Of a DNA stretch of 49,713 nucleotides, positions 6,471 to 47,191 are shown piece by piece; within the stretch, counting starts at the first letter, position 1; each line of letters starts with the position of its first letter. The translations under genes were made by a program, and so were the position numbers. The notes below the pieces were generated by a model. That model was not told where the DNA came from, ran no database searches, and saw only the letters and a program-made list of their open reading frames with translations. The DNA comes from a phage: the sequence record NC_130088.1; one strand, given 5' to 3'.

Positions 6471-7448
6471 ATGTCTAAAGAAAAAATTAAATTTGATGAA
6501 TTTGAAGCGTCTGTGATTTCTAATCACCTGCAACTGCAAGGCGCTAAAAACGATGCGTCTGATATGGGGATTTGGACGGCTCAAGAGCTACACAAAATTA
6601 AGTCTCAGGCTTATGAGAAAGAATATCCGGCAGGTTCCGCACTGCGTGTATTCCCTGTAACGTCCGAGCTTTCCGATACTGATAAAACTTTTGAATACCA
6701 GACTTTCGACAAAGTAGGTCACGCAAAAATCATCGCTGATTATACTGATGATCTGCCAACTGTTGACGCGATGATGACTTCTGAATTTGGTAAAGTGTTC
6801 CGCCTTGGTAATGCGTTCCTGATTTCCATTGACGAAATCAAAGCAGGTCAACGCACTGGCAAGAGCCTTTCCACTCGCAAGGCAAACGCCGCACAGAATG
6901 CGCATGATCAGCTTGTCAATCACCTGGTTTTCAAAGGCTCTAAGCCGCACAAAATTATCAGTGTGTTTGAACATCCGAACATCGCAACTATCAACTCCGC
7001 AGGTTGGAACAACGCCGCAGGTACTGGTAAAAAGCCGGAAACAGCACAGGATGAATTAGAGCAAGCGATTGAAAAAATCGAAACGCTGACCAACGGGCAG
7101 CACCGCGCTACTCACATTCTGATCCCGCCGTCAATGCGTAAGGTTTTGAGCGTTCGTATGCCGGAAACCACCATGAGCTATCTTGATTACTTCAAGCAGC
7201 AGAATGGAGGTATCACTATCGAATCCATTTCCGAGCTTGAAGATATTGACGGCGCAGGGACTAAAGCGGCGCTGGTTTACGAAAAAGATCCGATGAACAT
7301 GAGCATTGAGATTCCAGAAGCGTTTAACATGCTGACCGCGCAACCTAAAGACCTGCATTTCAAAGTGCCTTGCACCTCTAAATGTACTGGCCTGACGATT
7401 TACCGTCCGTTGACGCTGGTTCTGATTAAAGGTCTTGTAGTAGGCTGA
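6471..7448 (+). CDS. Major capsid protein (probable)
   Basis: 325 aa, strong SD GAGGGG, strong terminator directly after, position in head module. Confidence 0.65.
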   Translation: MSKEKIKFDEFEASVISNHLQLQGAKNDASDMGIWTAQELHKIKSQAYEKEYPAGSALRVFPVTSELSDTDKTFEYQTFDKVGHAKIIADYTDDLPTVDAMMTSEFGKVFRLGNAFLISIDEIKAGQRTGKSLSTRKANAAQNAHDQLVNHLVFKGSKPHKIISVFEHPNIATINSAGWNNAAGTGKKPETAQDELEQAIEKIETLTNGQHRATHILIPPSMRKVLSVRMPETTMSYLDYFKQQNGGITIESISELEDIDGAGTKAALVYEKDPMNMSIEIPEAFNMLTAQPKDLHFKVPCTSKCTGLTIYRPLTLVLIKGLVVG

Positions 7449-7464
7449 TAATTCAATTAATATA

Positions 7465-7491
7465 GGGAACCGTTAAAAGGTTCCCTTTTTT
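7465..7491 (+). terminator. Strong rho-independent terminator (GGGAACC..GGTTCCC plus T6)
   Basis: Perfect 7-bp stem and T-run after capsid gene. Confidence 0.7.
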
Positions 7492-7509
7492 ATATATGGA
7501 GAAAAACAA

Positions 7510-7782
7510 ATGGCTAAAGAAAAAGAAATTACACTGGTTAACACTGGCGTTGCACTGATTATTATTGATCGCGTTGACGTTATGCCAGGTAAAGAAATTA
7601 CCGTTGCGGAAAGCGTGTTAGAGCGTCAAGGCACTAAAGCACTTATGGCAGAAGGTAAGCTAACAATCAAAGATAACAGCGATCTCAATGCTGAAATCGT
7701 TGAAGCGTTTAAGAGCAAGCGCAAAAAAGATCCGAACGAAGGCAAGACAAAAAAAGAGCTTGAGGACGGCGGCGAGTATTAA
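7510..7782 (+). CDS. Small head-associated protein (hypothetical)
   Basis: 90 aa, SD GGAG, flanked by terminators. Confidence 0.4.
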   Translation: MAKEKEITLVNTGVALIIIDRVDVMPGKEITVAESVLERQGTKALMAEGKLTIKDNSDLNAEIVEAFKSKRKKDPNEGKTKKELEDGGEY

Positions 7783-7787
7783 TTAAT

Positions 7788-7814
7788 AAAGGCGCTTATT
7801 TAGTGCCTTTTTTA
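7788..7814 (+). terminator. Hairpin AGGCGC..GTGCCT plus T-run
   Basis: Dyad plus TTTTTT. Confidence 0.5.
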
Positions 7815-7827
7815 TTGGGGGTAAATC

Positions 7828-8232
7828 ATGAATGATATTGAGATCTTAGAGCAGATTTATAAACTTGCTCCAGCATTTAAAAAAGTAGATCCTGAATTGA
7901 TTCAGGCATGGATCGAATTAGCAAAAGATTTCGTTTGCGTTAACCACTTCAAAGACAAGTACAATCGCGCTGTTGCTCTTTATACGTTGCACCTGATGAC
8001 TCTTGACGGCGCAATGAAACAGGAAGGTGAAAGCGTAGAAAGCTACTCGCATCGTATAGCGTCATTTTCCCTGACTGGTGAGTTTTCTCAGACATTCAGC
8101 AAAGTTAGTGACGACACAAGCGGTAACACGTTGCGCCAAACGCCGTGGGGTAAAATGTATGAAGTTCTTAACAAGAAAAAAGGCGGCGGATTTGGCCTTA
8201 CAACTGCCTTTCGTCGGAGGTGCTCACGATGA
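7828..8232 (+). CDS. Head-tail connector / head completion protein (by synteny)
   Basis: 134 aa, SD GGGGG, translationally coupled to next gene. Confidence 0.4.
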
Positions 8233-8600
8233 ATTATGAACAAATCAGATCTATGGCATCGGCTGGAATTAATTTTTTTAGCGATGGAACTGGTGAATTT
8301 GATTGCATTACTCAGCCTGGAAGCGTTGAAATTGTTGGCGGTATTGAGGTTGAAAAACCTGAAATAAAGGTGAAGATTAAAGGTCTTGTGAGAGCACCAC
8401 GGACGCGAGAAGTTGACGGAGAGACAATTAGAGTTACCGACAAGTTAGGCGTTTTTAATGCTGATGTAGAGCTTAAAAACGGATATCAGATTGATATCGA
8501 CGGCGAGCGTTATGTTATGGTTGAAACAAGACCAATCAGACCAACAAGCATTACCGTTGCTTACCGTCCAATAATGCGGAGGGTTGCGGTTCATGGCTGA
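8229..8600 (+). CDS. Head-tail joining protein (by synteny)
   Basis: ATGA overlap, SD GGAGG. Confidence 0.4.
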
Positions 8601-9033: not shown

Positions 9034-9412
9034 ATTATCTGTTGCGGCAAGAATGGCGCTGGCTCAAGAATACGAAAGCGAATATATGATCGCTTATGAA
9101 AACGTTGAATTTACGCCACCAAAAGGCGGCGGCATTTGGCTGAAATATGACTACAAAGAAGCAGATACAATAATTCATGATCTGAAAAGGAAATGCATTA
9201 GTTATATTGGAATGGTTCAGATCGGAATTGAATTCCCGCCAGGATCAGGAATTGATAAGGCTCGCAAGCTGGCAAAAAATATTGCTGATTTCTTTGAAGA
9301 TGGTAAAATGCTTGCGAATGGTTATATTTCAGAAGGTGCGAAAGTGCATCCAGTTCAGAAATCAGAATCAGGCTGGTTTTATCCAGTACGTTTTTATGTT
9401 CGTTACGATTAA
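9023..9412 (+). CDS. Tail completion protein (by synteny)
   Basis: 129 aa, SD GGGAGG. Confidence 0.4.
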   Translation: MHYELSVAARMALAQEYESEYMIAYENVEFTPPKGGGIWLKYDYKEADTIIHDLKRKCISYIGMVQIGIEFPPGSGIDKARKLAKNIADFFEDGKMLANGYISEGAKVHPVQKSESGWFYPVRFYVRYD

Positions 9413-9426
9413 TAAAGGGGGCTATT

Positions 9427-10086
9427 ATGCACTTACCTAACGGAGCACAGATTTTTATTGAGAATACTCGCGGCTCAGAAATCAAAGCAACAGCAATCAG
9501 CAACGCAACAGATCCGGTGTTTACCGCGTCTAATACTGGCGGATTGAAAAAAGGTGATTATGTGATTGTCACTGTATCAACATGGGGTAAACTTCTTGAT
9601 CGTGTACTGCGAGTTAAAGAGGTTAGCGATAACACAAGTTTCACGCTTGAAGGTATCGACACCACTGATGAAAACGTTTTTCCGTCCGGCGCTACTGGTA
9701 GCGTTATGAAAATTGAATCATGGACAGAGATCCCATGCGTACAGGACTTGGGGCAGGACGGCGGCGAGCAGCAGTATTACAATTACCAGTGCTTGAGCGA
9801 TGACCAGGAGCAGCAGTTACCAACCTATAAAAGCGCGGTGTCACTGACTTACACCTTTGCGCATGAGTACGATAATCCGATTTATCCGCTCTTGCGTAAG
9901 GCTGACGAATCCGGCGACGTTAAAGCATTGCGCATGTATGTACCAAAAGCAAAAGAAATGCGACTTTGGGCTGGTGTGCTTTCTTTCAACGAGATCCCAC
10001 AAACGGCGGTAAACGAAATGGAAACCGTTTCTTTGTCGGTATCCCTGAAAGGTCGCTTTACTTTCTTGCCTTCTACTCAGGCTTAA
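9427..10086 (+). CDS. Major tail protein (probable)
   Basis: 219 aa, precedes chaperone G/GT and tape measure; followed by terminator. Confidence 0.55.
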   Translation: MHLPNGAQIFIENTRGSEIKATAISNATDPVFTASNTGGLKKGDYVIVTVSTWGKLLDRVLRVKEVSDNTSFTLEGIDTTDENVFPSGATGSVMKIESWTEIPCVQDLGQDGGEQQYYNYQCLSDDQEQQLPTYKSAVSLTYTFAHEYDNPIYPLLRKADESGDVKALRMYVPKAKEMRLWAGVLSFNEIPQTAVNEMETVSLSVSLKGRFTFLPSTQA

Positions 10087-10090
10087 TTTA

Positions 10091-10117
10091 AAGGGGCGCA
10101 TTGCGTCCCTTTTTTAT
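10091..10117 (+). terminator. Terminator hairpin with embedded TTGCGT -35 and TAATAT -10 17 bp downstream
   Basis: GGGGCGC..GCGTCCC plus T6; TTGCGT-17-TAATAT. Confidence 0.5.
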
Positions 10118-10157
10118 TTGATGTAATATCACCTCAATATTTAACCACTCAGGAGAA

Positions 10158-10478
10158 ATGACAATGGCTAAAATGAAATTGACTCTTGCCCCGCTTCCAG
10201 ATTTCAAACTTCCAGTTAAATTTGTATTGCCGGATGGTAACGAGCAAAAAATTGTGTTTACCGTTAAGCATAAAAAGGCCAGCGAGATTCAAGAGCTTTA
10301 CCAGAAAGAAGGTATTAAAGATTCTGAATTCATCATGAATGTTGCCGTGGGTTGGGATCTGGAAGAAGAATTCAACGAAGAAAACGCGCAACTGTTAGTT
10401 GATTATTATCCTGGCGCGGCGCTGGCTCTTATGGGATCTTATTTAAGTGCGCTGGCAGGGCAACGCGTAAAAAACTAA
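10158..10478 (+). CDS. Tail assembly chaperone (lambda G-like)
   Basis: 106 aa acidic protein immediately upstream of tape measure gene. Confidence 0.65.
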   Translation: MTMAKMKLTLAPLPDFKLPVKFVLPDGNEQKIVFTVKHKKASEIQELYQKEGIKDSEFIMNVAVGWDLEEEFNEENAQLLVDYYPGAALALMGSYLSALAGQRVKN

Positions 10479-10795
10479 AAAGGGCGGTTTATCTGTATTA
10501 TCAGAAACCGCCGACAGATGCAGAATTGCAAGCCGTAGGATTAACCCGCGCAGACTATGAAGGAGAAGATCCGCCAGAGGTCATATTTGATGAAAGTATG
10601 ATGCAATCATGGGATATATTTTGCGCGATGGGTACACAGTGGCGTAGTGCTGGCGCTGGTGCTTACGGTTTTGATTATAATGTTTTGCCTATGTTATTCA
10701 GAATCTATAAAATAGACGATGAAGAAATGGCCTTAAATGACTTGCGCATCATGGAACAAAAAGCACTGGAAATGATGCAAGCAAATAACAAATAA
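10158..10795 (+). CDS. Tail assembly chaperone GT-like fusion made by -1 programmed frameshift at A_AAA_AAC (10469-10475)
   Basis: -1 frame is open from before the slippery heptamer through 10795; no independent SD/ATG for the downstream ORF. Confidence 0.5.
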
Positions 10796-10818
10796 AGCGC
10801 CTACGGGCGCTTTTTTTA
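10795..10818 (+). terminator. Hairpin AGCGCC..GGCGCT plus T7
   Basis: Dyad plus T-run. Confidence 0.5.
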
Positions 10819-10832
10819 TGAGGGTAAAATAT

Positions 10833-13742
10833 ATGGCTGAACAATTTGCAGGTTTAACACTTGGCGTGAACGTCGAGCAGTTAAACAAAGCTGTTAAGTC
10901 GTTACAGGACTTTAAAAAAGCCAACGACGAAGCAAAGAAAGGCGTTGAGAGCTTTGTTAACGAGGAAGAAGTTGCAAAGCAAAAGGCTAAACAGTTAGCC
11001 GATGAATTAGCGAAACAGAGCCGTGAATTTAAGAGAATTCAGGATACAGTTGATCCGACAGCGGCAAAAATGCGCAAGCTGTCACAGGCAGCAAGTGATC
11101 TTGATAAGCTATGGCAAAAAGGGATTGTACCTGATGAAACATTCTTCCAATTAGGGAGCATGTTGGAAACTCAGATCAGTAAATTGGAGCGCAACAAAAA
11201 GGCGCTTACGGAAGAAGGCCGCGCAGCGTTGGAAGAATCACGCGCCAAAGAGAAAGCAGCGGCAGCAGGAAAGAGCTTCCTTGCGGATCTAGAATCACAA
11301 GCGGCGGCTCTTGGAAAAACCAAATCTGAATTACTGGAAATGAAAGCGGCGCAACTTGGCGTAAGTGCTCAGGCCGCACCATTCATTGCACAGCTTAAAG
11401 CGCAAGAAAAACAGATGAAGTTAACCGGAATTAGCGCAGGGCAATATAACCAGGCAATGCGAATGCTTCCGGCTCAGATCACTGACGTTGTAACGTCGCT
11501 GGCTTCCGGTATGCCTGTTTGGTTGGTTGCAATCCAGCAGGGTGGACAGATTAAAGATTCTTTCGGCGGTGTTGGTAATACGTTTAAAGCGCTGTTGTCG
11601 TTTCTGAATCCGGTAAACGTTGGCCTTGCCGCATTAGCCGTTTCAATGGGTGCTCTTGTTAAGGCTGGTTATGATGCGTATAAATCGCAACGTGACTTGC
11701 AAGAGGCGTTGGTGCTGACTGGTGGATATGCTGGCACAAGCGGCGCACAGTTCGATAAGCTGGCGCAGGACATTAATAACAGCACTGATGCGACGATAGG
11801 AAACATCCGATCCATCGCAACAGAGCTTGCAAAATCCGGCAAATTCACTATTGATCAGATTAAATCGATCACAAAGACTACCGCTCAGTGGTCAACGGTA
11901 ACGGGTGAATCAAGCGATAAGATTACTGGTTACTTTGATAAGATTGCTGGCGATCCGGTTAAAGGTCTTGCAGAGCTAAACGAGCAATTCAACTTTTTAA
12001 GCGAAGGGCAGTTAACTTATATTGCAGACCTGGAGAAAACGAAAGGAAAAACGGAAGCAGTGACGGCGGCGACAAAGTTATTTGCTGATGTTATGGATCA
12101 GAGATTAGCTAAACTGGCAGACTCCGCAACGCCATTAGAAAAGATGTGGACGAACATTAAAAAATGGGCGTCAGATGCTTGGGGATGGGTTGGAGATCAC
12201 ACGCTGGCGGCGCTTAACCTGATTATCGACGTTGTAGCCGGAACGGTTGAGCAGGTTAGATACTTGCTTAATCAGGGTGATATTCTCATTGGTGAATTTA
12301 TTGTGTCGGCAACTAAGACGATGCAAAAAATACCAGGTCTTGATAATGTTGGCGATTCTGTAATTTCGCAACAACAGAAGATCATTAATAACGCCAAAGA
12401 GAACAACAAGGAGTTATTAAAATCAATTGCCGAACGTAACGAGCGAGTCAAAAAAGGCGAGCAGGGTTACATTGACATGATGAAAAATCGTGCGGCGGTT
12501 GAACAGCAATATGCTACTAAAACAAAGGAGAATGTCAGGAAGGAAGCCGAGGAATTAGCCAAACGCGATAAAAAGCAAAAGGCTGAAAAAGTTAAGGTAT
12601 CGGCTGGCGATAAGCTGGAAGAACAATATCAGCGTGATATCCTGGCGTTAGAAACTCAATTAAGAGTTTTGAAAGAGCATAAGACGATCACTGATACCAT
12701 AAGCCAGCAACGTAAATCTTTATGGGCTGAACAGGCTAAAATTCAGATTCTGCAAGAAGCCTCAACAAAGCGGCAACTTACTGATGAAGAAAAAAGCATT
12801 TTAGCCAACAAAGATAAGATCCTGGCGATGGCTGAACAAAAAGCTATTTTAGGAGATCAGATTGTTGCACAAACGCGACTTAATCAGTTGCAAGATAGCT
12901 CAATCAAGTTTATCCAGCAGCAGAAAGCAGCAACAGAAGCACTAGCCAAAACCAGAGGGTTAAGTGAACGTGAAGCAGCAAGAGCGGCGGAACGTGCAAA
13001 GGTTGAGGCTGATTATCTTGCCAAAGGAGGCAAGGAAGGAGATCCGCAACTCACCGCAATGATGGATGCATTAGACAATCGCTATAAAGAGGAAGATGCT
13101 AAACGTGCTGATTGGTTGGCTGGCGCTAAAAATGCCTTTGCGGAGTACGGCGAGGAAGCAATGAACATGTATGATAATATCGGCAACATTGCGAGCCAGG
13201 CGCTAAACGGCCTATCGCAACAAATGGCTGATTTTTTGACTACTGGACAAGCAAACTTCAAAGACTTTGCAAAATCGATCATTAGCCTTATTGTTCAGAT
13301 GATCACAAAGATGGTTATCTTCAATAGCATTTCCGGCATGATGGGCGGCTCAACCTGGACGCTTGGAAGCCTTTTAAGCGGTGCTGGTTTTGCTGGCGGC
13401 GGTTATACTGGCGACGGTGGCAAATATGATCCGGCTGGCGTTGTTCATAAGGGTGAGTTTGTTTTCACCAAAGAGGCAACGCAAAGAATCGGAGCTAAAA
13501 ACCTGTATCGCATGATGCGAGGTTATGCAAACGGCGGTCAAGTAGGAAGCGTGACAACTGGCGGCGCTGGCATCAATCGCGGTGCATCGCAATTTGCATT
13601 TGGTGATATCAACGTTAACATTGACAACGGTCAAGATCCAAAAGGGATGGAAACTGGTATCAAGATGATTTTCACTGAAATGATTCAACGGTCATGCTCG
13701 CAAGGTGGCGAGGTTTATAATTTTGTTCATGGGAGGGCTTAA
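10833..13742 (+). CDS. Tail tape measure protein
   Basis: About 970 aa, long coiled-coil Ala/Lys/Glu/Gln-rich, Gly-rich C-terminus, position after G/GT. Confidence 0.85.
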   Translation: MAEQFAGLTLGVNVEQLNKAVKSLQDFKKANDEAKKGVESFVNEEEVAKQKAKQLADELAKQSREFKRIQDTVDPTAAKMRKLSQAASDLDKLWQKGIVPDETFFQLGSMLETQISKLERNKKALTEEGRAALEESRAKEKAAAAGKSFLADLESQAAALGKTKSELLEMKAAQLGVSAQAAPFIAQLKAQEKQMKLTGISAGQYNQAMRMLPAQITDVVTSLASGMPVWLVAIQQGGQIKDSFGGVGNTFKALLSFLNPVNVGLAALAVSMGALVKAGYDAYKSQRDLQEALVLTGGYAGTSGAQFDKLAQDINNSTDATIGNIRSIATELAKSGKFTIDQIKSITKTTAQWSTVTGESSDKITGYFDKIAGDPVKGLAELNEQFNFLSEGQLTYIADLEKTKGKTEAVTAATKLFADVMDQRLAKLADSATPLEKMWTNIKKWASDAWGWVGDHTLAALNLIIDVVAGTVEQVRYLLNQGDILIGEFIVSATKTMQKIPGLDNVGDSVISQQQKIINNAKENNKELLKSIAERNERVKKGEQGYIDMMKNRAAVEQQYATKTKENVRKEAEELAKRDKKQKAEKVKVSAGDKLEEQYQRDILALETQLRVLKEHKTITDTISQQRKSLWAEQAKIQILQEASTKRQLTDEEKSILANKDKILAMAEQKAILGDQIVAQTRLNQLQDSSIKFIQQQKAATEALAKTRGLSEREAARAAERAKVEADYLAKGGKEGDPQLTAMMDALDNRYKEEDAKRADWLAGAKNAFAEYGEEAMNMYDNIGNIASQALNGLSQQMADFLTTGQANFKDFAKSIISLIVQMITKMVIFNSISGMMGGSTWTLGSLLSGAGFAGGGYTGDGGKYDPAGVVHKGEFVFTKEATQRIGAKNLYRMMRGYANGGQVGSVTTGGAGINRGASQFAFGDINVNIDNGQDPKGMETGIKMIFTEMIQRSCSQGGEVYNFVHGRA

Positions 13743-31634: not shown

Positions 31635-32750
31635 ATGAGTTTAAAAAAGATTACCGACGAGCAATTGATCGCTGAACGTGAGGCGGGTTTAAAACTGCGT
31701 GAGATTGCGGAAAAATACGGAATGAGCTTGCGCCAGGTTGAGCACCGCCACAGCAAATTAGCAAAGCGTGGCGAGATCTCAACTATCGGATCACCTGGCT
31801 TTGCGGTAATTGGCGAGTCAAAGTTAGTTGATAAAAACGGCAATACTAAACTAACCTGGATTAAGACGCACAAAGATAAAGACCAGTTAGAGGCAATAAT
31901 GCAAGCGGCTATGGCTGCATTTTCTGGCGAGTTGCCACGCCTGGAACCACAGCCGGAAAAGATTGCTGACTATTCGAAAACCCTTGCGCTATATCCGATC
32001 TTTGATATTCATATTGGTGCAATGGCTCATAAGCATGAAAGCGGCGAGAATTACGACACGGCAACGGCAGAAAAGATCATGAATGAATTCTTTGATTATG
32101 CCGTCGATAAAGCACCGAATAGCGAAAAGGCTGTATTGCTGATTGGTGGTGATATGATTCACAGCGACGGCCTGGAGGCTGTAACACCTGCAAGCGGTCA
32201 CGTTTTGGATCAGGATTCGCGATATGCGAAACTTGTTTATGTTGCCATTCGAGCCACGCGCAGAGCAGTAAGCCGAATGCTGGAAAAACATAAAGAGGTT
32301 GAATTGCAGATCATTGAAGGTAATCACGACCAATCAGGAATGATCTGGCTACGTGCTGCAATGGCGGCGGCGTATGAGAATGAGCCACGCGTAAAGGTTG
32401 ATGTTTCTCCGCGTGTCGTGCATCACACTCAATATGGTAAAACTTTCCTGGCTTATCATCATGGTCACACTGTACGCAAGCCAGAAACGCTTTTAATGAT
32501 GTGTGCAGCGGATTGGCGGGAAGATTTCGGAAACTCCAATTCAATGTATGCGCATGTAGGGCATTGGCATCACCAGACTGTTACAGAAACGAGCCTTGGC
32601 ATTGTTGAGGTGCATAGCACTATGGCAGCAAAAGACGCTTACGCCGCGCGTGGTGGCTGGCGTTCACGTCGCAGGGCGGCGGTAATTATTTATGATAAGG
32701 AATATGGCGAAATAGGGCGCTTTATGTTTTACCCTGAAATGATTGCTTAA
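31635..32750 (+). CDS. Metallophosphoesterase (calcineurin-like) with N-terminal HTH-like segment
   Basis: Motifs D-x-H, GGDMIH, GNHD, GHWHH; N-terminal LKLREIAEKYGMSLRQV. Confidence 0.6.
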   Translation: MSLKKITDEQLIAEREAGLKLREIAEKYGMSLRQVEHRHSKLAKRGEISTIGSPGFAVIGESKLVDKNGNTKLTWIKTHKDKDQLEAIMQAAMAAFSGELPRLEPQPEKIADYSKTLALYPIFDIHIGAMAHKHESGENYDTATAEKIMNEFFDYAVDKAPNSEKAVLLIGGDMIHSDGLEAVTPASGHVLDQDSRYAKLVYVAIRATRRAVSRMLEKHKEVELQIIEGNHDQSGMIWLRAAMAAAYENEPRVKVDVSPRVVHHTQYGKTFLAYHHGHTVRKPETLLMMCAADWREDFGNSNSMYAHVGHWHHQTVTETSLGIVEVHSTMAAKDAYAARGGWRSRRRAAVIIYDKEYGEIGRFMFYPEMIA

Positions 32751-42987: not shown

Positions 42988-43030
42988 TAGCACGAATTGC
43001 TAAAACTAAATCATGGGCATTTGTTATAGT
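42988..43030 (+). promoter_or_regulatory. Conserved box (GAATTGC variant) plus TATAGT inside a hairpin (class-2 unit)
   Basis: GGGCA..TGCCC stem around the -10. Confidence 0.5.
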
Positions 43031-43064
43031 GCCCATCGTTGAGTTAAGCAAAGGAGAATCAACA

Positions 43065-43637
43065 ATGTTAAAAGCGAATGAAATCAACTTCCCGATCATC
43101 TTTAATTTTCCTGCTGATTATACAATGAAGAACATAACATTCGAAAATGATTCAGGCAATGGCACCTGGGCCAATGGGAATAAAAGCGGATTGCCGCTAT
43201 CATATTTCATTAAACAGCATAATGCTCAAAACCCATACAACACAGAGGGTAAGCCATATTTTTACAAAATGGCGGCAAAGAAAGAGAAAAAGCGAGAAGA
43301 TAACGATCTGTTAGATGCGCTGAAATATTTAAATATCAGGACTGGCCATGTTAATTTAAACGGTGCTGTATTTACTGCGTCAGTCGGATCTAAAGATTAC
43401 GATTACATTTGCAAGGTTGAAAATATGCCAGTTGGCGCAGCGCTTTTAGGTGTTCAGCGTGAAAGTGGCGAATGGGACGAGTTGAAATTTAAACCTCGCC
43501 GCATTGAAGTACACGACGATGTTATTTGCTTGCTTTCCGGTTATTCTGGAGGTTACAAGAGCGGCAATAATTACGGCGCTGAAATCAACATTAAGCGCGG
43601 CACTAACGTAAAAATCAAAAACAGCACGAATTGCTAA
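43065..43637 (+). CDS. Hypothetical protein ending NSTNC
   Basis: 190 aa, SD AAAGGAG; C-terminus encoded by the conserved box. Confidence 0.5.
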   Translation: MLKANEINFPIIFNFPADYTMKNITFENDSGNGTWANGNKSGLPLSYFIKQHNAQNPYNTEGKPYFYKMAAKKEKKREDNDLLDALKYLNIRTGHVNLNGAVFTASVGSKDYDYICKVENMPVGAALLGVQRESGEWDELKFKPRRIEVHDDVICLLSGYSGGYKSGNNYGAEINIKRGTNVKIKNSTNC

Positions 43638-43664
43638 AACAGAATTTTGGGCTTGCGGTATAGT
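43622..43664 (+). promoter_or_regulatory. Conserved box (GAATTGC variant) plus TATAGT (class-2 unit)
   Basis: Box/gap/-10. Confidence 0.5.
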
Positions 43665-43696
43665 AAGCCCATACCAAACAACGAGAGGATCACAAA

Positions 43697-44023
43697 ATGG
43701 AATTAGCACGTAACGCGGTTTATGGCTTACACCTTAAAGGCGGCAAAGGCTCAACTTATGCGCACCTTTTTCATGTTAACGAGCGTGGTCAGATGGATAT
43801 CGCAATGTTTGTTGACCAAAGGGTTAAGAAAGGTGGTGAGGGTGATTGTGATACATTCCGACCGGATTTAGTTGAATACGATCACACATACAGTCATGAT
43901 CACTGGATTGGTCACGGTCGCAAGTTTGTAATGGTTAATAGCCACGTTACCGACACAAGCAAAATCACTGCATCGCAGTATAAGCGCATGGCTCGCAAGG
44001 TTATGAAGTTAGAAGCGCAATAG
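43697..44023 (+). CDS. Hypothetical protein
   Basis: 108 aa, SD GAGAGGA. Confidence 0.45.
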   Translation: MELARNAVYGLHLKGGKGSTYAHLFHVNERGQMDIAMFVDQRVKKGGEGDCDTFRPDLVEYDHTYSHDHWIGHGRKFVMVNSHVTDTSKITASQYKRMARKVMKLEAQ

Positions 44024-44063
44024 CACGAAATGTTAAGCGGCCATGTGTGCTGATTGGTACAAT
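44021..44063 (+). promoter_or_regulatory. Degenerate conserved box plus TACAAT (class-2 unit)
   Basis: TAGCACGAAATGTTAAG, 22-nt gap, TACAAT. Confidence 0.4.
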
Positions 44064-44095
44064 GACCGCATCAACCAACAATAGAGGATAGAAAA

Positions 44096-44203
44096 ATGTC
44101 AAAAGAATCAATTAAGCAGTTTCTGAAATACGGCTCTATGATTGTGCTCGCTACCGTTGTGCTGGCTGGCATAGCTTACAGTGTCATCGAATTTGTGGGG
44201 TAA
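44096..44203 (+). CDS. Tiny membrane peptide (35 aa; below ORF-track cutoff)
   Basis: SD AGAGGA; hydrophobic core MIVLATVVLAGIAY. Confidence 0.35.
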   Translation: MSKESIKQFLKYGSMIVLATVVLAGIAYSVIEFVG

Positions 44204-44206
44204 TGG

Positions 44207-44749
44207 ATGTTTAAGATCGAATTGTGGGGGAAGGAATACGCTAATCACTACGTTGCAACAAAACAGCGTTTCGTGATTTTCGACCTGGATGGCACATTGT
44301 CAAATGGTGAGCACCGCTTGCACCTGTTGCCAACGGTTGATTTGCATCTTACTGAAAGCTGGAGTGAGTTTAATCGCGCCGCAAAGGATGATTCACCATT
44401 CATGGATAACATTTCCGTGTGCAACGCCATGTTTGACGCAGGATACCTGGTTATCATCCTAACTGGTCGAAGCGATGAAGTCGAAACGGAAACGCGATCA
44501 TGGTTGGCTGAAAACGGCGTTTCTTTCGATTGGCTGATTATGCGCCGCTCAAGCGATAATCGGAAAGATACCGTAATCAAAGAGGAAGTTTTACGGACTA
44601 TCGGCCTGGAGAATATCGTTGCGTGTTGGGATGACTCGCCAAACGTTATTGCGCACTTGCGCGGCATGGGATTGACTGTTTACCAGGTTATTGACTACGG
44701 CGACCAGTTGCACGATCACTTAAAGTCTCACGGAGTTGAAAAGCTATGA
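44207..44749 (+). CDS. HAD-superfamily phosphatase (possible polynucleotide 3'-phosphatase or nucleotidase)
   Basis: HAD motif I FDLDGT, motif II ILTGRS, motif IV WDDSPN. Confidence 0.7.
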   Translation: MFKIELWGKEYANHYVATKQRFVIFDLDGTLSNGEHRLHLLPTVDLHLTESWSEFNRAAKDDSPFMDNISVCNAMFDAGYLVIILTGRSDEVETETRSWLAENGVSFDWLIMRRSSDNRKDTVIKEEVLRTIGLENIVACWDDSPNVIAHLRGMGLTVYQVIDYGDQLHDHLKSHGVEKL

Positions 44750-44922
44750 AACTAAAATGCATCGGTGAATATCCAGGTTTTACGGTTGGCAACATGTACA
44801 ATGCAACAATCGGAATGGATCACACATTTTGTTATGAATGCTATGTTGTCATTGATGATGATGGTGATTCACGTAGCATTGATTTCGAAACAGAGGATTT
44901 TATAGAGGATCGTTATCTGTGA
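44746..44922 (+). CDS. Small hypothetical protein (58 aa; below ORF-track cutoff)
   Basis: ATGA coupling to upstream gene; acidic C-terminal half. Confidence 0.3.
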   Translation: MKLKCIGEYPGFTVGNMYNATIGMDHTFCYECYVVIDDDGDSRSIDFETEDFIEDRYL

Positions 44923-45019
44923 TTGAAAACTATGATCCAATGGCGTTTGCCTGGGGCGTTGGTGCTTTCGTGGTGGCGGTTGTGATTTGCTTATGGGATA
45001 TAAACCGGATGGATAGATA

Positions 45020-45205
45020 ATGCTTACTGCTTTTTTAATTTTGATTGTCATTATGCTTTACGTTTGCGGCGCTTTCCTGATGCGAGCGCTACTAAAAGAG
45101 GCTGACGCTGATGATAAGGATAGTTGGAAGCCGATTATTTTATGGCCTGGATATATCATCGTGCCGATTTACGAACTAATCCGCGATGGTGAGTTTAAGT
45201 GGTAA
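45020..45205 (+). CDS. Small membrane protein
   Basis: 61 aa, N-terminal TM helix. Confidence 0.4.
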   Translation: MLTAFLILIVIMLYVCGAFLMRALLKEADADDKDSWKPIILWPGYIIVPIYELIRDGEFKW

Positions 45206-45206
45206 A

Positions 45207-45249
45207 TAGCACTTTTTGCTAAAACTTGCTAAGGCACATTTGATAAAGT
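45207..45249 (+). promoter_or_regulatory. Conserved 19-bp box plus TAAAGT inside a hairpin (class-2 unit)
   Basis: GGCACA..TGTGCC stem. Confidence 0.5.
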
Positions 45250-45282
45250 GTGCCTTGTCGAGACAAGCAAGGAGAATGACAC

Positions 45283-45579
45283 ATGAAAGTTTTTATGATT
45301 AAACAGTTTGGAAGCACTGCATATTATATCATCAACGACGAGGGAGATATTTTCATTTCGAACTATCCGACTCTTGAAGTTGGGCGTCATTTCAGAAGTT
45401 CAGTTGACGAAAAAGGAATTATCAATATGGTTGAGTGTGGAATGATGGTTCCCTTCAATAAAGAAGCGGCTGAATTATTCCAGCAATCACAGATCCGAAA
45501 GCGCAACCGCAATATTATTTGCTTTACCGTCGCAATGGTTGTAACTGTTGGCTCAATCTTACTTGGAGTGTGGGCGTGA
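45283..45579 (+). CDS. Hypothetical protein with C-terminal TM segment
   Basis: 98 aa, SD AAGGAG. Confidence 0.45.
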   Translation: MKVFMIKQFGSTAYYIINDEGDIFISNYPTLEVGRHFRSSVDEKGIINMVECGMMVPFNKEAAELFQQSQIRKRNRNIICFTVAMVVTVGSILLGVWA

Positions 45580-45761
45580 TGAATCTTGATAATAAAGTTG
45601 AAACGCAAAAGACGATTGATTATCTGCGTGACCTTGCCGACAAGCTGGAGAATAACCAGATTCATTTAAATGAGATCGTTATTGAATCGCGCAACGTTTG
45701 TTGGAACGTTGAAGAAGAAACATTGACAATGCAAGTTTTAAAGGCGGTAGACAATGGCTAA
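45579..45761 (+). CDS. Hypothetical protein
   Basis: 60 aa from ATG overlapping upstream stop. Confidence 0.35.
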   Translation: MNLDNKVETQKTIDYLRDLADKLENNQIHLNEIVIESRNVCWNVEEETLTMQVLKAVDNG

Positions 45762-46329
45762 AATTATCATCCTTAACGCGCCTCCAGGTGCTGGTAAAGA
45801 CACAATCGGCAAGATGATTTCTTTCTATTCGCCTGGTGAGCAATGCCGCATCATTAGCTTTAAAGAGCCAATGTTTGACATTGCATTAGCTATCCTGGGC
45901 AAAGAGAACTATAAGCGCTTCATGTTGGCTTATGATGACAGAGAGCAGAAAGAAAGGCCGCAAACATTCCTGATGGGTATGTCACCGCGTGAGTTCATGA
46001 TCTGGATTAGCGAGGATGTAATCAAACCTAAATTCGGCAAGGATTATTTCGGCGTAAGGTTTAACCAGAAAGTAAAAGAGTGTGATGCTCCTGTTGTTTG
46101 CACTGATGGTGGTTTTCCAGATGAAATTATCGCTCTAATCAATGCTGGTAATGAGGTTAAGCTATGTCGATTGCATCGCGACGGGTTCACGTTTGCAGGT
46201 GATAGCCGCAACTACATTCGAATCAATCCATATTACCAGAAAAACGGATATAGTGAGCACGATTATAAATTGGTTGATAAGCAACCGAATGTAACTGTAA
46301 AGGAAATTATTAGCGATCACCTTAAATAG
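45754..46329 (+). CDS. P-loop nucleotide kinase (dNMP-kinase-like)
   Basis: Walker A PPGAGKDT near N-terminus; size about 190 aa. Confidence 0.55.
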   Translation: MAKIIILNAPPGAGKDTIGKMISFYSPGEQCRIISFKEPMFDIALAILGKENYKRFMLAYDDREQKERPQTFLMGMSPREFMIWISEDVIKPKFGKDYFGVRFNQKVKECDAPVVCTDGGFPDEIIALINAGNEVKLCRLHRDGFTFAGDSRNYIRINPYYQKNGYSEHDYKLVDKQPNVTVKEIISDHLK

Positions 46330-46369
46330 CACGAATTGCTAAAACTTGCGCAAGGCCATTTGTTATAGT
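46327..46369 (+). promoter_or_regulatory. Conserved box (GAATTGC variant) plus TATAGT inside a hairpin (class-2 unit)
   Basis: GGCC..GGCC stem around the -10. Confidence 0.5.
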
Positions 46370-46409
46370 GGCCTTATTCAAGAGAAGCAACCAATCAGAG
46401 GAATAAGCG

Positions 46410-46607
46410 ATGAAAATCAAATGCACAAAATCAAACACCCTGAATCTGACAGTTGGCGCGATTTACCACATGGAAGAAGGTGTAAACGGGTTTAGCCCAA
46501 CTGTAACGCATGAATACGGCGGTCACTTCTTCTTAAACGGTAAAGACGGATTATCTGTAAACGTTGGCTCTTTCGTACTTGCAGAATTTGAGATCGTGGA
46601 GGAATAA
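46410..46607 (+). CDS. Hypothetical protein
   Basis: 65 aa, SD AGAGGA. Confidence 0.4.
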   Translation: MKIKCTKSNTLNLTVGAIYHMEEGVNGFSPTVTHEYGGHFFLNGKDGLSVNVGSFVLAEFEIVEE

Positions 46608-46609
46608 AA

Positions 46610-46774
46610 ATGTTCTGGATTCATTCGCCGCAAGGGTTGCTTTATGTGCCTGGAGTTGAATTAGAAGAACGACGCGACGGCGACACGGTAAACATCATAA
46701 CGAAGGATTCAAAAGGCCACACTCTTAAAACGTATGTTTTTAACACTCCGGTTAAGGTCGAAAAAGATGATTAG
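46610..46774 (+). CDS. Small hypothetical protein (54 aa; below ORF-track cutoff)
   Basis: SD GGAGGA. Confidence 0.35.
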   Translation: MFWIHSPQGLLYVPGVELEERRDGDTVNIITKDSKGHTLKTYVFNTPVKVEKDD

Positions 46775-46949
46775 ATTTATTGGTTTTGTGGCATTGCTTA
46801 TGTGCGGAATATTGCTTACTGACAATGACACTTGGCAAAGCGCTGTTGGCGGTTTACTTATTTTTCTTGCTGGTGGCATGGTTGGCAGTGATGACGCAGC
46901 AAACAAGAATAAACTTTCCGATCATTTACGCAGAGAGACAAAACGATGA
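46767..46949 (+). CDS. Small membrane protein
   Basis: 60 aa with two hydrophobic segments. Confidence 0.35.
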   Translation: MIRFIGFVALLMCGILLTDNDTWQSAVGGLLIFLAGGMVGSDDAANKNKLSDHLRRETKR

Positions 46950-47191
46950 ATAGAAAAATGCTGGTACGCGCATTCGCGAAGATTGCTAAAAGATGGGGTG
47001 ATTCAGCTAAAACACCTTACACGTTTAGTATGTACGGTTACAAGAATGCTCGCGCATGGGGTCGCATCATTGCAGATAACTATGAATCCGAAATGCTGGA
47101 TGCTTACGCAAGCTGGATTGATACGCCGCTAAATGAATGGGGCCAGGCTGAATATGATTGTTTTGCTGATGAAGAAATTTCTTGTTGGTAA
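46946..47191 (+). CDS. Hypothetical protein
   Basis: 81 aa. Confidence 0.4.
   Translation: MNRKMLVRAFAKIAKRWGDSAKTPYTFSMYGYKNARAWGRIIADNYESEMLDAYASWIDTPLNEWGQAEYDCFADEEISCW

Follow-up and report, generated by a model that had tools for sequence, protein, structure and literature searches.

A Pnkp-type phosphatase and a T4 gp1-like kinase of Citrobacter phage vB_CfrD_Devorator as a probable nucleotide-supply pair

The early arm of Citrobacter phage vB_CfrD_Devorator (Drexlerviridae, Tempevirinae, Tlsvirus), a T1/TLS-like siphovirus, encodes a phosphatase, gp68, and a P-loop kinase, gp73, which probably act as separate enzymes within a nucleotide-supply module conserved among phages and do not form a split polynucleotide kinase-phosphatase (Pnkp). 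The window analysed is the whole 49,713-nucleotide sequence NC_130088.1, whose coordinates equal those of GenBank record OL539461.1 plus 7; positions 43000–47000 match that record with 100% identity, and the gene coordinates that were compared agree. A sequence-only reading of this DNA had described a phosphatase with DxDGT, TGRS and DD motifs and a GAGKDT kinase about 1 kb apart. Both open reading frames (ORFs) are exactly as claimed, with 1,004 bp occupied by four small ORFs between them, and their motifs are not chance resemblances, as they belong to real, large protein families with hundreds of homologues (HAD_PNKP/phrog_415 and phrog_139, respectively). Of the two roles proposed there, a nucleotide-salvage pair is favoured by the kinase family and by the gene contexts, and the halves of a Pnkp are not. 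OL539461.1 already annotates both genes, gp68 as “polynucleotide kinase” and gp73 as “putative kinase”, and close relatives carry the names pnkP for the gp68 counterpart and dmk or deoxynucleoside monophosphate (dNMP) kinase for that of gp73. The genes were thus annotated before, and the literature already has the protein families, the synteny and the two functional proposals; added here are the phosphatase-only correction for gp68, the gp1/Dnk placement of the kinase, Rosetta-stone fusions, linkage counts and a missing annotation of the peptide Stp.

The phosphatase and the kinase

gp68 is predicted to be a stand-alone DxDxT (HAD) 3'-phosphatase, homologous to the C-terminal domain of T4 Pnkp. 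It matches the Pfam family HAD_PNKP (PF25109) with 69.6 bits (E 4e-19; cutoff 27.6 bits) and phrog_415 at 1e-68, and its closest solved structures by sequence in the PDB are Pnkp1 (4xrp, 1e-8), a component of the bacterial Pnkp1-Rnl-Hen1 repair system, followed by the T4 Pnkp phosphatase domain. In hhalign, a 20-sequence profile of the gp68 family spans residues 152–298 of T4 Pnkp, the entire phosphatase domain (probability 97.6%, E 3e-12), and pairs T4 D165, D167, R176, S211, R213, D254, K258, D277 and D278 with gp68 D26, D28, R37, T86, R88, D121, K125, D142 and D143, respectively. The gp68 counterparts of all nine residues are invariant across the 20 homologues. Of the T4 residues, R176, R213, D254 and D277 are presumably essential. 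The Asp nucleophile, the Asp acid/base, the Ser/Thr, the Lys and the Mg-binding Asp pair of a T4-type Pnkp phosphatase domain are all found in gp68; the roles of T4 Asp165, Asp167, Ser211, Lys258 and Asp278 have been described (PMC3592404). There is no P-loop in gp68, and its 180 residues leave no space for a kinase domain, so that the GenBank label “polynucleotide kinase” is a misnomer for a phosphatase-only protein. Among the best 120 of 519 homologues, all are stand-alone proteins of 162–237 aa, and the long contigs are nearly all of about 50 kb. Immediately upstream, an unannotated ORF for a 35-aa hydrophobic peptide (MSKESIKQFLKYGSMIVLATVVLAGIAYSVIEFVG; 44096–44203, plus strand) has a good ribosome-binding site and stops 3 nt before the gp68 start codon; it is the positional equivalent of TLS gp08.

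gp73 is clearly placed, by independent lines of comparison, as a predicted member of the dNMP kinase family of the T4 gp1/T5 Dnk type. It matches phrog_139 at 8e-48, as do T4 gp1 (2e-65; sequence checked against PDB 1dek) and T5 Dnk (1e-51; taken from NC_005859), all three at profile positions of about 82–266. The profile of its 127-member family aligns in hhalign with T4 gp1 at full length (172 columns, probability 92.6%, E 4.5e-7) and with T5 Dnk over 64 columns running through the P-loop, SFxKP and RxxKE motifs (probability 96.5%). The predicted fold comprises a P-loop core and a helical domain for binding nucleoside monophosphates (NMPs) like that of 1dek, and the 1dek-type dNMP kinase is the top structural match; PDB sequence searches with gp73, as a single sequence or as a 25-sequence profile, returned P-loop noise only. 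Against the kinase domain of T4 Pnk, the alignment is confined to a 27-column P-loop. Asp35 and Arg38, which we take to be the catalytic residues of T4 Pnk after strand 2, mark a position at which the gp73 family has no conserved acidic residue, and a Pnk-type P-loop 5'-kinase domain with this Asp and Arg was not recognised in gp73. Lys37 of the family is conserved at 99%, as expected for an enzyme with a phosphate, not a hydroxyl, as acceptor. R63, K66, R79, K91, D118, E124 and R152 are further invariant residues, and about 1,470 phage records carry the kinase. The comparison of PNK with dNMP kinase profiles had been proposed by the sequence-only reading, which named a clear grouping with dNMP kinases as an outcome that would count against a Pnkp. 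gp73 groups in this way, and its likeness to Pnk is limited to the P-loop; as far as the kinase is concerned, this refutes the Pnkp reading.

Linkage, fusions and a third partner

The gp68-type phosphatase and the gp73-type kinase are strongly linked in function. The kinase profile retrieved 80 viral contigs of T1-like type, of which 76 carry a HAD_PNKP gene upstream of the kinase gene, on the same strand and at a distance of at most 2.7 kb, and in 22 of the 80 the two genes abut. A homologue of a third Devorator protein, gp37, lies close upstream of the phosphatase gene in 21 of the 22 abutting pairs, in 20 of them directly against it. Small ORFs like gp69–gp72 are absent where the phosphatase and kinase genes abut and are inserted between them in Tlsvirus, in which the block is dispersed, with gp37 beside the lysis cassette and the other two genes in the early arm, split by four small ORFs. 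The order metallophosphoesterase, HAD phosphatase, kinase recurs in Webervirus KpV522 and in the Autographiviridae Aeromonas phage phiA014L, where the phosphatase stop and the kinase start overlap, and, with short intergenic gaps, in the Yersinia myovirus vB_YenM_534; the Autographiviridae phages PM16 and AS51 have the metallophosphoesterase upstream of the kinase and no HAD phosphatase.

Natural HAD_PNKP-kinase fusions were found twice among the 150 cluster representatives listed (P0259, 403 aa, and P0265, 461 aa), and in both proteins the two halves appear intact. Their genomic context was read from P0259 alone, the P0265 contig being only 1.9 kb long: the P0259 fusion is located on a 61-kb phage contig, immediately upstream of a phrog_704 metallophosphoesterase. 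At positions 9340–12436 of that contig, the fusion and the metallophosphoesterase are followed by a PAPS-reductase-like gene and a Dam-type methyltransferase. 3'-Phosphoadenosine 5'-phosphate, the expected by-product of a PAPS-reductase-type enzyme, is a further compound on which a 3'-phosphatase could conceivably act.

gp37 starts with an N-terminal helix-turn-helix (HTH), followed by the full set of binuclear metallophosphoesterase motifs (DxH, GD, GNHD, HGH and GHxH), which are invariant among 24 homologues. Motifs and fold agree, as the fold search also leads to the metallophosphoesterase superfamily, with resemblance to SbcD, Mre11 and the PolD exonuclease subunit; this search does not separate nucleases from generic phosphodiesterases. 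Homologues with 65–67% identity to gp37, some of them named “Rrf2 family transcriptional regulator”, lie on E. coli contigs of 165–457 kb and are presumably prophage-borne. Relatives of gp68 and gp37 with 93–96% identity have been deposited under the name “Streptococcus phage MBBL140” (49,190 bp), and “Campylobacter phage A139/A142/C2” likewise stands for T1-like and rV5-like genomes; probably either the hosts named are not the true ones or contaminating coliphages were the source of the records.

Nucleotide supply and its rivals

We infer the substrates and the pathway role of the pair from family membership, intact catalytic residues, linkage and natural fusion. In the proposed sequence of events, a metallophosphoesterase nuclease of the gp37 type would break down DNA, and gp68 would clear 3'-phosphates from the resulting ends, from 3'-dNMPs or from 3',5'-bisphosphates (pdNp), leaving products open to further degradation or to entry into the kinase step. 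gp73 would then turn 5'-dNMPs into the diphosphates (dNDPs), and the net effect would be the conversion of degraded host DNA into the deoxynucleoside triphosphate (dNTP) pools of the phage. T1 and TLS are reported to break down the chromosome of their host and to recycle the nucleotides (PMC11447400), and the T4 phosphatase domain acts on 3'-dTMP at 24 per second (PMC3592404). A 2026 paper on Drexlerviridae points out a block of exonuclease, PNK and dNMP kinase genes and proposes an enhanced nucleotide supply (PMC13164509). Nucleotide supply is further supported by the location of the pair in DNA- and nucleotide-metabolism contexts in other phages. In the rV5-like Escherichia phage inoa (4004–5205), a gp1-like kinase gene is directly followed by those of an NT5C-family 5'(3')-deoxyribonucleotidase, annotated as hypothetical, a thymidylate synthase and a ribonucleotide reductase. 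This second, independent pairing of kinase and HAD phosphatase lends independent support to the nucleotide-supply reading.

Several points weigh against this assignment. The characterised relatives in the gp68 family heal polynucleotide ends for repair. gp73 has no match above noise in the curated models of Pfam or NCBIfam, and the “DTR” motif of gp1 is replaced in it by “DGGF”, so that its specificity could differ. gp37 matches PdeM only weakly, with an E of 0.001 and a score well under the family cutoff, and in Devorator gp68 and gp73 stand in separate repeat-delimited units, with gp37 11 kb away. Finally, if kinase and phosphatase both used the same 5'-dNMPs, the result would be a futile cycle, and the model therefore requires gp68 to be 3'-specific.

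One rival reading is partly a variant of nucleotide supply: gp68 would be a 5'(3')-deoxyribonucleotidase of the T5 Dmp or NT5C kind, selectively removing unwanted mononucleotides while gp73 advances the wanted ones. The coupling of the same kinase with an NT5C-family nucleotidase in rV5-like phages and the high activity of the T4 phosphatase domain on deoxynucleoside 3'-monophosphates (PMC3592404) would suit such a balancing of dNMP pools. However, the score of gp68 with HAD_PNKP is far above that with any family of nucleotidases, with no NT5C match in Pfam, and the fusion of opposed activities on one substrate would be wasteful unless their specificities differed; we regard this explanation as quite improbable.

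A second rival assigns the three proteins to the healing of DNA ends: metallophosphoesterase, 3'-phosphatase and kinase would process damaged or defence-cut phage ends carrying 3'-phosphate and 5'-hydroxyl groups, which would then be served by the host polymerase and the NAD-dependent ligase LigA. It agrees with the conserved gene order, with the resemblance of gp37 to SbcD, Mre11 and the PolD exonuclease subunit, together with its faint PdeM signal, and with T1-like phages being without a polymerase and ligase of their own; moreover, PdeM-type nucleases in ligase-associated repair operons generate 3'-PO4 ends (PMC7826289). The phosphatase half of this proposal is compatible with nucleotide supply, the main difference being the substrate of the kinase. 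Yet end-healing requires a 5'-hydroxyl polynucleotide kinase, whereas gp73 has the helical NMP-binding domain and the motifs of a dNMP kinase, which makes the proposal unlikely. It is likewise of low probability that a gp1-like kinase was recruited as a 5'-hydroxyl polynucleotide kinase, the pair and the fusions then being a non-canonical Pnkp on a dNMP-kinase scaffold; if true, this Pnkp would heal breaks with 3'-phosphate and 5'-hydroxyl ends, whether these come from the linked metallophosphoesterase nuclease or from defence nucleases of the host.

The remaining alternative is the repair of tRNA by a split Pnkp, as the sequence-only reading had suggested. T4 Stp is an anti-type-IC-restriction peptide and an activator of PrrC, and a homologue of it is encoded 1.2 kb upstream of gp68. 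Its peptide (MSSWHNEHVMQFYRHRIKKMINSTNC) and the product of the annotated TLS stp are the same except at one residue, but OL539461.1 has no annotation for the gene. It matches phrog_6763 at 9e-15 over residues 1–23, the conserved N-terminal region, and residues 1–18 are 72% identical to stp loci of T4-like phages (tblastn); among the tblastn matches listed, 18 of the 20 non-T4-like records have no annotated feature at this locus. In such a circuit, Stp would block the type IC restriction enzyme, the anticodon nuclease PrrC would be unleashed and cut tRNA-Lys, gp68 would remove the 2',3'-cyclic phosphate, gp73 would phosphorylate the 5'-hydroxyl, and a ligase would reseal the tRNA as in T4. In its favour, gp68 is a true Pnkp-type domain by its complete set of catalytic residues, and the HAD-kinase fusions share their domain order, phosphatase and then kinase, with mammalian PNKP. 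The genome announcement of phage Stevie draws the same connection for Tlsvirus between Stp, PrrC and “polynucleotide kinase” (PMC4319613).

Against it stands, besides the P-loop-only match of gp73 to T4 Pnk, the lack of a ligase, in agreement with the earlier observation that none could be recognised. Among the unassigned proteins, neither Pfam nor PHROG scans gave an RNA or DNA ligase, every match of five ligase queries to all ORFs of at least 40 aa had E > 0.5 (phmmer), and the KxDG motif is confined to tail fibre, portal, capsid/scaffold and primase ORFs. All ORFs of 190 aa or more are assigned to something other than a ligase or belong to a PHROG of unknown function. gp37, gp44, gp47, gp57, gp58, gp66 and gp78 were considered as hidden RNA ligases and rejected, with no ligase family match; gp66, which lies between Stp and the phosphatase, falls in a PHROG of unknown function and shows no 2H (HxT/S) motifs by eye. 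The partner Rnl1/Rnl2-type RNA ligase of a T4-type Pnkp was thus not found in the genome. The E. coli RNA ligase RtcB works on 3'-phosphate ends, and removal of the 3'-phosphate would therefore be no help to host-mediated sealing. The idea that Stp travels with the pair was rejected: only 14 of the 80 kinase-bearing T1-like loci have it, with no association between Stp and the phosphatase (Fisher p 0.54); the Devorator homologue is taken as context only. In Acinetobacter phage Acibel004, moreover, a below-cutoff RNA_lig_T4_1 (Rnl1-like) gene adjoins a separate AAA_33/zeta-type kinase, itself just below cutoff, and not the gp1-like kinase, which is 3 kb away. Taken together, these data make the tRNA-repair circuit improbable. 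In this Acibel004 region (7009–8338), the gene adjoining the ligase-like one is annotated as a 142-aa “putative phosphatase”; given its near-cutoff matches to AAA_33/zeta-toxin-type P-loop kinases, it could be a wrongly named kinase from a module for RNA repair.

If the nucleotide-supply role is right, the metallophosphoesterase, the 3'-phosphatase and the dNMP kinase become candidates for the host-DNA recycling genes of T1-like phages (PMC11447400). The biological payoff is modest and the results will not surprise specialists; the practical value lies in annotation hygiene, as the name “polynucleotide kinase” on phosphatase-only proteins of about 180 aa is wrong in hundreds of Drexlerviridae records. 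Because of this misnomer, in combination with Stp, authors have assumed a capacity for tRNA repair like that of T4, which these genomes cannot provide because a Pnk-type kinase and a ligase are both lacking.

Genome setting and known systems

Table 1 Coordinates of the genes and repeats discussed, in the window
Feature	Position	Strand	Details
gp68, predicted Pnkp-type HAD phosphatase	44207..44749	+	180 aa; D26-L-D-G-T30, T86-G-R-S89, D142-D143
gp73, predicted P-loop kinase of the T4 gp1/T5 Dnk family	45754..46329	+	191 aa; G12-A-G-K-D-T17
gp69–gp72, four small ORFs between phosphatase and kinase	44746..45761	+	ORF list; PHROGs of unknown function
Stp homologue, 26 codons	42923..43003	+	phrog_6763; near-identity to TLS stp
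gp37, HTH and binuclear metallophosphoesterase	31635..32750	+	“DNA repair exonuclease” family
Repeat copy heading the gp71-gp72-kinase unit	45196..45275	+	repeat families D1–D4; sequence read directly
Further repeat copies	42237, 42977, 43611, 44018 (partial, upstream of the HAD gene), 46316, 47688	+	

The gene-cluster boundaries of the early arm are marked by a repeated element of 54–72 nt (Table 1), which is composed of the palindrome TAGCA-N5-TGCTA, a spacing of about 22 nt and an extended −10 sequence (TGnTATAGT, TGnTAAAGT or TGnCATAAT) overlapped by a short inverted repeat. The element looks like a putative repeated operator and promoter by its layout; a simple sigma-70 scan did not detect it. 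Stp and gp66 both finish in NSTNC because their ORFs run into it.

Among known systems, T4 Pnkp (pseT; PDB 1ltq and 5uj0) shares with gp68 the DxDxT acylphosphatase fold family, a phosphatase domain that can be aligned as a whole and the catalytic residues. gp68 differs in lacking the N-terminal P-loop kinase domain (180 aa against 301 aa), in an insert of about 16 residues following DxDGT, in being paired with a different kind of kinase and in belonging to a genome that encodes no partner RNA ligase. gp73 resembles gp1 and Dnk (PDB 1dek; phrog_139) in the GKD(T) P-loop, the SFxKP/AGPIK segment, the DRE/RxxKE motif, the (T/P)D...E segment and the helical NMP-binding insert, but it is shorter by 50–60 residues, carries “TDGGF” in place of “PDTRQ” or “TDVRF”, and is only about 15% identical in structural matches and 22% in the hhalign alignment. 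With the T4 circuit of Stp, PrrC, Pnkp and Rnl1, the Devorator arm has in common the Stp homologue (conserved N-terminal core HNEHVMQFYR) and the Pnkp-type phosphatase; it differs in having neither a Pnk-type kinase nor an RNA ligase, and across the family Stp is dispensable for the pair. A further parallel is the “DNA repair exonuclease - PNK - dNMP kinase” block of Webervirus and other Drexlerviridae (PMC13164509): its members are scattered in Devorator and not contiguous, but the same three protein families are all present.

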